From NCBI GenBank assembly GCA_040752695.1, contig JBFMGO010000006.1:1-64000 (forward strand): a DNA stretch of 64,000 nucleotides. Direction: 5' to 3'. This DNA is from a bacterium. GTDB lineage: Bacteria > SZUA-182 > DTGQ01. This document shows, piece after piece, positions 62,637 through 64,000 of this stretch. The stretch's first letter is position 1; every line of letters starts with the position of its first letter. The position numbers and the translations under genes are program-made. Under the pieces are notes generated by a model. It had not been told where the DNA came from. It made no database searches and saw only the letters and a program-made list of their open reading frames with translations.

Positions 62637-63206
62637 CTACCAGACATCACCGCAAAAGTTCTGATATTCGCAATCCGCACATTGGCTCCTGTTCCTGGGC
62701 TGTATGGGCAGCAGCTCCTTTTTAATCATTTCCCGTATAGAAATCAATATATCGAGAGTCCTTCTTTTCAGCTCCCTGGTGATATGAAAAACCTCGATAT
62801 CATGCAATGGGAGCAGGTACACGAATCCCCAGTTAACCAGTATTCCGTAAAGGTCTTCCAGCAGCAGGGAATAAGCCGTCAACTGATAAAGCTGGCTTTT
62901 CGCTGGTTTTTGTCCGGTATTCCTGAATTCTACGGGGAATAAACCCTCCCTGGATTTTACCATGAGATCCAACTGGCCGCTCAGCCCCAGCCTCGTAGAA
63001 ATCAAGGGGACCTGGAATAACCGCTCTCCCTCGTCCAGGTGATATTTTTTTAGCTTGCGCCTGTGTTCAAGTTTTTCGAAAACATCCTGATAATTACCTG
63101 GTATGGGAGGAGAACATTTTTTTTCGAGTGGTAAGATATAGGAAAAAAAAACTACTCTCGGACAGTCAATGTACTGCTTAACATCGGAAATATTAAAAGT
63201 GATCAC
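62637..63206 (-). CDS. cas4: Cas4 family Fe-S nuclease homologue (motif III K to R)
   Basis: KQYIDCPR, LGLSGQLD, PVEFR, QLTAY, CADCEYQNFC. Confidence 0.88.
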   Translation of the reverse strand: MITFNISDVKQYIDCPRVVFFSYILPLEKKCSPPIPGNYQDVFEKLEHRRKLKKYHLDEGERLFQVPLISTRLGLSGQLDLMVKSREGLFPVEFRNTGQKPAKSQLYQLTAYSLLLEDLYGILVNWGFVYLLPLHDIEVFHITRELKRRTLDILISIREMIKKELLPIQPRNRSQCADCEYQNFCGDVW

Positions 63207-63385
63207 TTATTCAGTACCTTCTTTCACAAGGGGGCATATAATGCTCTCATGATCCAGCCATAATGAGGTCACCTGGAATTCTCGAATTCCTTCCATGGTC
63301 GCTAACGGCTCCCCTTCCCCCCTTGGAAGAGGGAGAAGAGGAAGTATTCAGGGATAGAGGCATATTACTCATTGTTTATTACTCA

Positions 63386-64000
63386 TCAGGCCCACTCTTT
63401 GAAGCGAAAGGGCTTATATTTTTTCTCACCCTGGAGAAAAGCGGCCAGACGCCGGGCCTGGATCTGAATAATCGATTTGATCCGATATTCTTTCCCTTCA
63501 TACACTTCACTGGATTCAAGCCGCTCCAGAATTTTTTTGGCAATGGACTGCCGTGTTTCCGGATACAATAATCCATTGTGCATGCGACATATTTCCCCCA
63601 TACTCACCTGGGTAATAATCGGGAGGTCCACAATCGGCTGTCTGAATTCCTTAACCAGGTCCAGCACCAGTGAGGATTTGCCCGGCTGGTCCTCTACATG
63701 CATAAAACCCGCAAAAGGTTCGAGACCTGCATGCAGGACTGCGCCCCACACTTGTGAATATAAAAGTCCATATCCATAGTTCAGCATCGCACTCACAATC
63801 TGCCCGGCATGCTGGTAGACTCGGCCAAGGAATTCGAATTTAAGGTCAATGATCTTGCTCAGACCATCCCAATACATTCTTTCCCCCTCTCCATCGATAT
63901 CCATCAGTGCAGATCGAACTTCATCGATGTTTTCCCCTTGGATCCTCCTGACTCTTGCCTTCAATAGCTTGATGGATCGGGCAGCCTCCTGAACCTTTCC
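63386..64000 (-). CDS. cas1: Cas1 homologue, 5' part beyond window edge, altered catalytic residues
   Basis: MLNYGYGLLY, GLEPFAGFMH, SLVLDLVKEFRQPIVD, QARRLAAFLQGEKKYKPF; frame open to base 64000. Confidence 0.9.
   Translation of the reverse strand, partial: GKVQEAARSIKLLKARVRRIQGENIDEVRSALMDIDGEGERMYWDGLSKIIDLKFEFLGRVYQHAGQIVSAMLNYGYGLLYSQVWGAVLHAGLEPFAGFMHVEDQPGKSSLVLDLVKEFRQPIVDLPIITQVSMGEICRMHNGLLYPETRQSIAKKILERLESSEVYEGKEYRIKSIIQIQARRLAAFLQGEKKYKPFRFKEWA

Follow-up and report, generated by a model that had tools for sequence, protein, structure and literature searches.

The window analyzed here, the first 64 kb (64,000 nucleotides) of a 99.6-kb contig from a bacterial assembly of 6.05 Mb (239 contigs, 96.6% complete), carries at its right-hand edge a cas1 gene and a cas4 gene without a cas2 gene or a CRISPR array. 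On comparative sequence evidence, this pair is a CRISPR-detached, vertically inherited remnant of a cas1-cas2-cas4-array adaptation module. The distribution of traits among its relatives indicates that the ancestor of a small clade of uncultured bacteria lost cas2, the array and the nuclease center of Cas4 (the Lys of the D-x-K motif, a T-x-K-M-E-x-G motif and an N-H motif) while keeping the fold and the four cysteines of Cas4, and that Cas1 has been altered at about one-fifth of the positions that are nearly invariant in its family. We favor, at a little better than even, the reading that the genes encode a vertically inherited, repurposed and at least partly non-catalytic Cas1/pseudo-Cas4 pair, a putative bacterial analogue of the archaeal Cas1-solo group 1. 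Both genes lie on the minus strand with open frames, and their arrangement is as follows.

63386..64000 in the window, minus strand: cas1, 402 residues; the window edge cuts the gene, whose last 204 codons and stop lie in the window and whose start is at contig position 64594.
63207..63385, no strand: the cas1-cas4 spacer, 179 bp, at the site where the family usually has cas2.
62637..63206, minus strand: cas4, 189 residues, GTG start; the Cas4 fold and four iron-sulfur (Fe-S) cysteines are kept and the nuclease motifs are lost.

In what follows, G000 is the genome of the window, G001 and G002 are genomes of the same genus, and G003 belongs to a second genus of the order. L120 (also M120) and L121 (also M121) are metagenome contigs, and P-numbers denote database proteins of the Cas1 or Cas4 family.

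The family from which the pair derives is one of long Cas1 proteins. A family search returned 2368 proteins at an E value of 0.001 among the 8000 candidates scored, and the 120 relatives listed are ∼400 residues long, share 49–78% identity over nearly the full length and have a conserved N-terminal extension of ∼65 residues; the source names in this listing include Nitrospira, Thermodesulfovibrionales, Binatia, Aminicenantes and Zixibacteria. In the family loci examined, 80 from genomes and 80 from metagenomes, the usual layout is cas1, cas2 and cas4 followed by an array of 37-nt repeats ∼1 kb after cas1, with Csx11/RAMP, DevR-type Cas7 or Cas3/Cas6 genes upstream. Outside the clade, cas2 and cas4 are each found in 113 of the 122 loci with at least 1100 nt of downstream sequence, and among the 67 loci with at least 2 kb a strict exact-word detector locates an array downstream in 40 and upstream in 5 more. 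The N-terminal extension (Cas1 residues 1–65, contig positions 64400–64594) lies outside the Cas1 models, is conserved family-wide including the orphan clade, and carries a Q-x-N/A-L-F-T motif and an acidic D-E-G-E-E..I-D-E-G stretch.

Of 13 genomes from the order examined by whole-genome search, 4 have an orthologue: G000, G001 and G002, all of the window's genus, and G003. The clade further comprises L120 (97% identical to G001), L121 (77% identical to the window) and the proteins P0006 and P0007; the two contigs came from a metagenome scan with the clade alignment, a scan with a single protein having given none. A maximum-likelihood tree of 41 rows, for which 32 of the 113 other family proteins were drawn at random, groups the six clade proteins together inside the family (Shimodaira-Hasegawa-like approximate likelihood ratio support, 98–99), with P0009 as their sister. 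The likely partner Cas4 of P0009, P0132, which is encoded on a contig of equal length, keeps the Lys and the other motifs. In the clade itself, cas2 is absent from all six loci and cas4 directly follows cas1 in all six, at distances of –7 to 179 bp, with a 742-bp gap in L121. This larger gap was considered as a possible cas2 site and rejected: it is made up of short dispersed repeats also present on many G000 contigs, and a family hidden Markov model (HMM) detects no cas2 in it. None of the six loci has an array, and an apparent array in L120, 2.8 kb downstream, consists of three imperfect copies of an intergenic element with 60–93% identity and is not a CRISPR array. Orthologues of the AMP-dependent ligase gene that adjoins the pair, 77% identical, are found beside it in G000, G001 and G002, and therefore the pair has held one chromosomal place since before these three species split. 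Ahead of the cas1 start, four genomes share a conserved purine-rich ribosome-binding stretch together with a short motif.

The Cas4 of the window matches PF01930 (54.4 bits) and TIGR00372 (89.5 bits; cut-off, 65). Its nuclease site is altered at the codons given here.

62922..62930, minus strand: Cas4 codons 93–95, E-F-R (in PVEFR), where the family has its D-F-K nuclease motif; AGG at 62922–62924 encodes R95.

In profile alignments, R95 is placed at the Lys of PVEYK in 8d3l, of PVDYK in 7mi4 and of PVEIK in 4r5q. This catalytic Lys is kept in all 129 non-clade Cas4 proteins (66 of 66 in a smaller set), and the PD-(D/E)xK signature is incomplete in G000. The four cysteines C15, C176, C179 and C185 are all present, as are Q108..Y112. 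The family motif after the first Cys is T-x-K-M-E-x-G, and both this motif and the N-H motif are lost in the G000 protein. The AlphaFold model of Cas4 (mean predicted local distance difference test score, 83.9) is confident save for residues 31–34 and their surroundings, which is the site of the lost motif. In structure comparisons it comes closest to Cas4 in the type I-C and I-G adaptation complexes 8d3l and 7mi4 (template-modeling scores, 0.71–0.73), the best match being Cas4 of 8d3l at 0.71.

Across the clade, the Lys is retained in none of ten Cas4 proteins, and the four cysteines are invariant. The residue at the Lys site is Arg in G000, M121, G001 and M120, Ser in G002 and His in G003; in P0126, P0127, P0128, P0130 and P0131 it is Arg, Ile, Arg, Arg and Asn, respectively, P0129 being the G002 protein. 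The position is therefore free to change, and the inactivation of Cas4, as judged from this pattern, is old and common to the whole clade. Of 46 columns conserved to 95% or more in 66 other Cas4 proteins, 12–16 are also changed in the clade proteins, as compared with a median of 0 and at most 13 in the 66 others; the non-clade protein with 13 departures keeps D..(D/E)xK, because all 129 non-clade loci do. In G001 and its near twin (L025:1644–2411 and L120:7271–8041), Cas4 contains an insertion of ∼65 residues with an internal duplication at the site of the lost T-x-K-M-E-x-G motif; the frame with the insertion is open, and the ratio of nonsynonymous to synonymous substitution rates (dN/dS) between the two copies is 0.23.

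The Cas1 of the window scores above the cut-offs of PF01867 (184.4 versus 22.3 bits) and of TIGR00287 (196.1 versus 71.7 bits), matching the latter over profile positions 1–327, and its closest solved relative is the Cas1 of A. fulgidus (4n06; E = 5.6e-54). The codons for the four catalytic positions read as follows, conservation being given among the 120 listed family proteins.

63893..63895, minus strand: Cas1 codon 234, GAT, Asp (in MDIDG), at the family's first catalytic Glu.
63698..63700, minus strand: Cas1 codon 299, CAT, the catalytic His (in GFMH), kept; His in 120 of 120.
63659..63661, minus strand: Cas1 codon 312, GAC, Asp, kept; Asp in 120 of 120.
63650..63652, minus strand: Cas1 codon 315, AAG, Lys (in DLVKEFR), at the family's last catalytic Glu; one transition from GAG.

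Alignment to 4n06 pairs D234 with the Glu of g-i-E-g and K315 with the Glu of d-l-m-E-n-f-r. Position 234 is Glu in 118 of the 120 listed proteins and Asp only in G000 (1 of 120); position 315 is likewise Glu in 118, Lys only in G000 and Asp in P0011. The G000 tetrad is D-H-D-K as compared with E-H-D-E in all 156 family loci outside the clade, so that the acidic tetrad is incomplete. In Escherichia coli Cas1, the metal-binding tetrad is E141, H208, D218 and D221, and alanine at any of the four positions is reported to abolish nuclease activity (PMC4046053). Within the clade, the tetrad is E-H-D-E in G001, M120, G002 and P0007, E-H-D-D in G003 (E315D), K-H-D-E in L121/P0006 (E234K) and D-H-D-K in G000, and four of the six clade loci thus keep E-H-D-E or E-H-D-D. 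Loss of an acidic ligand of Cas1 appears on this distribution to have occurred twice, in two close lineages, each time from Glu to Lys at a different position. Beyond the tetrad, 133 Cas1 columns show conservation of 97% or more in 113 other family proteins. The six clade proteins differ at 26–36 of these, as compared with a median of 0 and at most 5 in the 113 others; the G000 protein is altered at 29 of these columns and the sister P0009 at 11. Of the 133 columns, 75 are unaltered in all six clade proteins, 9 have a single new residue that five or all six of them share, and 19 vary within the clade.

A preliminary description of this stretch, made from its letters and reading frames, had called both frames intact and had noted MDIDG, DLVKEFR and the retained His of GFMH in Cas1 as well as PVEFR, the four Fe-S cysteines and QxxxY in Cas4. 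These readings agree with the sequence, in which both frames (402 and 189 residues) are open, and the assignment of residues is upheld by the alignments to 4n06 for Cas1 and to 8d3l, 7mi4 and 4r5q for Cas4. It had also described the loss of a G..xH motif after the first Cys; the loss is real, and the motif that was lost is T-x-K-M-E-x-G instead. That the substitutions are neither chance nor common variation follows from the 156 of 156 E-H-D-E tetrads and the 129 of 129 Cas4 Lys residues outside the clade. The proposal of active-site changes in both partners is correct for Cas4, with Lys lost in 10 of 10 proteins and the cysteines kept, and does not extend to Cas1 as a trait of the clade: the Cas1 changes are private, and most of the clade has the full acidic tetrad (G001, G002, M120 and P0007, with the conservative E315D in G003).

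Substitution rates were compared within the clade and among working relatives. Within-clade pairwise dN/dS values by the NG86 method, where dS was computable, are 0.08–0.22 for cas1, 0.09–0.23 for cas4 and 0.07–0.16 for the neighboring ligase gene, dS being near or past saturation for most pairs. Between G000 and L121, dN/dS of cas1 is 0.13 by NG86 (dS, 0.94) and 0.24 by YN00 (dS, 0.60), and that of cas4 is 0.18. In working family loci, the corresponding values are 0.06–0.24 for cas1 (12 unsaturated of 400 random pairs) and 0.06–0.34 for cas4 (nine of those 12). The terminal Cas1 branch of G000 has a length of 0.14, no longer than the sister paths of 0.14 and 0.20, and the frames are still open where identity within the clade falls to 53–57% in Cas1 and ∼50% in Cas4. 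These values indicate that cas1 and cas4 have been under purifying selection as strong as that on working relatives since the clade ancestor. Long retention at one locus with the dN/dS of working genes rules out neutral decay over the history of the clade. The earlier preference for exaptation over random decay fits the monophyly of the clade, the shared site in three species and the dN/dS of 0.08–0.23. Its expectation that orthologues would share the substitutions at dN/dS below 1 is borne out for Cas4, where the change is shared and dN/dS is 0.09–0.23, and not for Cas1, where the changes are private to G000. Private substitutions together with a neutral dN/dS had been named as the mark of incipient pseudogenes; the Cas1 substitutions are indeed private, and dN/dS is not neutral.

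Searches of G000 for the remainder of an adaptation module gave the following results. Two curated models and a family-specific Cas2 HMM (positive controls, E = 3e-44 and 1.5e-42) detect no Cas2 in the 179-bp gap, in the contig or in the genome, and array and repeat-matrix scans place no array after cas4, both as first described. In the contig flanks of the pair, including the part beyond base 64000, no array, further cas genes apart from cas1 itself, polB or flanking inverted repeats were found, and the suggestion that a cas locus might continue past the window edge does not hold. Short inverted pairs with 73–81% complementarity are the only such features near the pair; terminal inverted repeats flanking it were not found. 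A genome-wide word scan for arrays yielded 13 candidates, all of them tandem coding repeats, and the genome-wide maximum score of a family-repeat matrix is 15.6 as compared with a median of 47.4 for true repeats. A profile search of the genome finds one cas1 and one cas4, and no second canonical cas1 of the kind envisaged earlier. A dominant-negative regulator of spacer acquisition, also proposed earlier, would have nothing to regulate, because G000 has neither a second cas1 nor a cas2. There are no RAMP or DevR matches in G000; Cas3 is represented only by sub-threshold helicase matches (34 bits; cut-off, 102), and the sole Cas9 match is an HNH-like fragment.

The absence of CRISPR components holds at the locus and not genome-wide. 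Through a Cas5 match, a type I-B cas6-cas8b-cas7b-cas5b locus without cas3 was reached in G000.

Contig C94:2–2256, minus strand, and contig C13:77354–79857, minus strand (loci L211 and L202): Cas3-less type I-B locus, split across two contig ends.

Genes for a sigma-54 regulator and a histidine kinase border this locus, with no cas3 and no cas1, cas2 or cas4 adjoining; between it and the histidine kinase lies a 574-bp spacer with three CRISPR-repeat-like copies, irregularly spaced in G000. An orthologous locus is present in G002, with three repeats at 78- and 70-nt spacing, and in G001; no Cas7b match was found in G003, the genome of which is 76% complete. The type I-B locus has the look of a Cascade-only system that is conserved, includes a mini-array and may be regulatory. 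Because relatives of its five proteins are found in none of the 160 loci of the long-Cas1 family, it is a separate system, and a common origin of the pair with the Cascade was rejected on the same count. Ordinary cas1-cas2 pairs occur elsewhere in G002 (two) and G001 (one) and in neither G000 nor G003, and therefore the Cas1/Cas4 pair is kept with or without a working adaptation module.

The surroundings of the pair in the window's contig consist of the AMP ligase gene and of genes for secreted or regulatory proteins.

62459..62636, no strand: intergenic tail 3′ of cas4, with a 43-nt imperfect direct repeat at 62517–62599; not a CRISPR remnant.
60938..62458, plus strand: AMP-dependent ligase gene, convergent to cas4; PF00501, 211 bits; the syntenic anchor of the pair in the genus.

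The tail closes with a motif similar to the end of the family repeat and was examined as a CRISPR-repeat remnant; its best matrix score is –12.5, and 0.5 such matches are expected by chance. Short imperfect tandem repeats are common in the intergenic regions of G000, as at window positions 60499–60647 and 62517–62599 and contig positions 69799–69926, with periods of 44, 43 and 16–17 nt, and related elements occupy the cas1-cas4 gap of L121 and match many G000 contigs. On the 5′ side of cas1, ∼900 bp without a long frame precede a divergent gene for a 1410-residue secreted protein with a dockerin domain. At window positions 55619–60502 (plus strand), a 1627-residue frame encodes PKD-like modules followed by three near-identical blocks of ∼300 residues, each holding parallel β-helix-like repeats. 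Beyond the window, contig positions 76046–79435 (minus strand) encode a fusion of 1129 residues in which an N-terminal phosphotransferase system (PTS) EIIA-type domain is joined to a P-type cation ATPase. In G003, an FHA-domain protein and a Ser/Thr kinase lie 3′ of the pair on the same strand (L026:5735–7689), an arrangement not conserved in the window's genus.

A change of function in the stem of the clade is suggested by what was lost and fixed there: cas2, the array and all Cas4 nuclease motifs disappeared and nine Cas1 positions were fixed, and therefore the change is placed at that time. The two proteins may still assemble a binary complex without Cas2, and this complex could hold DNA ends or overhangs that Cas4 does not cut; a Cas4 with its fold and cluster and no cutting activity would capture single-stranded ends and retain them. 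Nicking or joining of DNA in the absence of Cas2 may still be open to Cas1 in most of the clade, where it has its E-H-D-E center. G000 (D-H-D-K) and the sister lineage (K-H-D-E) have probably lost this chemistry, and in G000 the selected role would be non-catalytic binding, scaffolding or regulation. Our preference for a repurposed and partly non-catalytic pair is a modest one because four of the six loci keep Cas1 chemistry and two close lineages lost it without visible relaxation. The fuller proposal of a Cas1/pseudo-Cas4 complex with a CRISPR-independent cellular role, selected through the whole history of the clade (at least two genera), in which the dead, Fe-S-bearing partner is obligate and Cas1 catalysis is dispensable in two lineages, falls somewhat short of an even chance. 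That in the window's genus the pair, the orphaned Cas3-less type I-B Cascade and the three-repeat mini-array together form a non-immune regulatory system is a speculation to which we give little credence.

Several points weigh against repurposing. The two catalytic changes in Cas1 are private to G000, a metagenome-assembled genome, and one or two of these private codons may be a consensus error. The one-residue insertion after H299 (at 301), the altered Cas1 C terminus and the 179-bp gap are likewise seen only in G000. No third gene is conserved beside the pair among the clade loci, so there is no hint of a pathway. The nearest DNA comparison for G000 is only 77% identical, dS is saturated for many pairs, and pairwise dN/dS averages over both lineages and long times and is compatible with a recent loss of constraint in G000. 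These observations bear on the alternative that decay is in progress, the pair having been functional in the clade, the G000 Cas1 having recently lost its active site and the genes being young pseudogenes still free of stops. E234D and E315K, each private (1 of 120), the private insertion and C terminus, the widest cas1-cas4 gap among the assembled genomes and the lack of cas2 and of a second cas1 would all fit such a history, which we nonetheless consider unlikely: dN/dS between G000 and M121 is 0.13–0.24 for cas1 and 0.18 for cas4 at dS of 0.6–0.9, the terminal branch does not exceed its sisters in length, both frames are open, and the sister lineage with an independent E234K is also intact and constrained.

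A Cas2-free integrase, in which Cas1 and a non-cutting Cas4 that reads the protospacer-adjacent motif act in trans on the type I-B mini-array or on an unassembled array, is more doubtful than decay. A possible target exists in G000 as cas6-cas8b-cas7-cas5 with three repeat-like copies on C94/C13, and E-H-D-E or E-H-D-D is kept in four of six clade loci. The type V-C mini-integrase is a Cas1 integrase that operates without Cas2. Casposases are Cas2-free Cas1 integrases as well (PMC4046053). Against integration stand the Lys at the last acidic ligand of the G000 Cas1 and a report in the same source that replacing any one of the E. coli tetrad residues with alanine abolished the nuclease. The Cas4 nuclease is predicted to be dead in 10 of 10 clade proteins, the mini-array amounts to just three repeat-like copies in G000 and G002 with irregular spacing in G000, the Cascade proteins have no relatives in the 160 Cas1-family loci, and G003 has the pair with no Cas7b match in its 76% complete genome. 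Cargo or a recombinase of a casposon-like mobile element is scarcely credible: a Cas1 without CRISPR is a hallmark of casposons (PMC4046053), and here neither terminal inverted repeats flanking the pair nor a neighboring polB was found, the chromosomal neighbor is the same in three species, and the clade nests inside a CRISPR-linked Cas1 family.

A repurposed pair would bear on the long-standing question of what roles Cas1 and Cas4 play outside spacer capture. The clade is a natural experiment, in which proteins without Cas2, an array or Cas4 catalysis are nevertheless constrained and working relatives serve as controls, and it reveals which Cas1 positions can vary when the need for Cas2 and for array integration has gone. 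If slow decay were true, the pair would be an ordinary remnant.

The closest parallel is Cas1-solo group 1 of the Methanomicrobiales, a set of stand-alone Cas1 proteins with an incomplete active site and no sign of horizontal transfer, which its authors judged to evolve under constraints unlike those on working Cas1 (Krupovic et al. 2014, PMC4046053). As in that group, the Cas1 of the pair lies outside CRISPR, has an incomplete active site and is vertically inherited. In contrast to group 1, an archaeal set with a separate clade in the Cas1 tree, the pair is bacterial and nested in a working bacterial family, is always accompanied by a nuclease-dead Cas4 and retains the full tetrad in most of its clade; it is a two-gene unit, the Cas1 of which is still in an intermediate state. 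Shared descent with the archaeal group is unlikely, because the clade nests with a support of 99 in a bacterial CRISPR-linked family. To the canonical cas1-cas2-cas4-array module with 37-nt repeats, hosted by Nitrospirota, Aminicenantota, Binatia, Acidobacteriota and others, the pair is related by 49–55% full-length identity including the ∼65-residue extension and by the same cas1-cas4 order and strand. The main differences from that module are that the pair has no adjoining cas2, array or effector genes, that its Cas4 motifs are lost, and that the G000 Cas1 has changes in 29 of the 133 near-invariant columns, including two catalytic ones.

In the type I-C system of Bacillus halodurans, Cas4 and Cas1 bind each other tightly in the absence of Cas2, and their complex and the one that contains Cas2 exclude each other (Lee et al. 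2018, cited from PMC6519985). By analogy, this is the state that a Cas2-less pair would adopt; the B. halodurans complex comes from an active system whose Cas4 cuts, whereas that of the G000 pair is predicted. Solo-Cas4 genes outside CRISPR loci have been described (Hudaiberdiev et al. 2017, PMC5704561), and the nucleocapsid protein of TTV1 has been described as an inactivated Cas4 derivative in a structural role (PMC4625639). Full-text literature searches of main texts, with passages from PMC5704561, PMC4046053, PMC12669027 and PMC9755687 among those examined, gave no account of a Cas1 that lacks Cas2 and is retained beside an inactivated Cas4. The pair resembles the solo-Cas4 proteins and inactivated derivatives in having a Cas4-family protein away from CRISPR, with the nuclease lost in one known case. 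Unlike these, which stand alone or reside in mobile elements, it is chromosomal and has kept both its Cas1 neighbor and the Fe-S cysteines.

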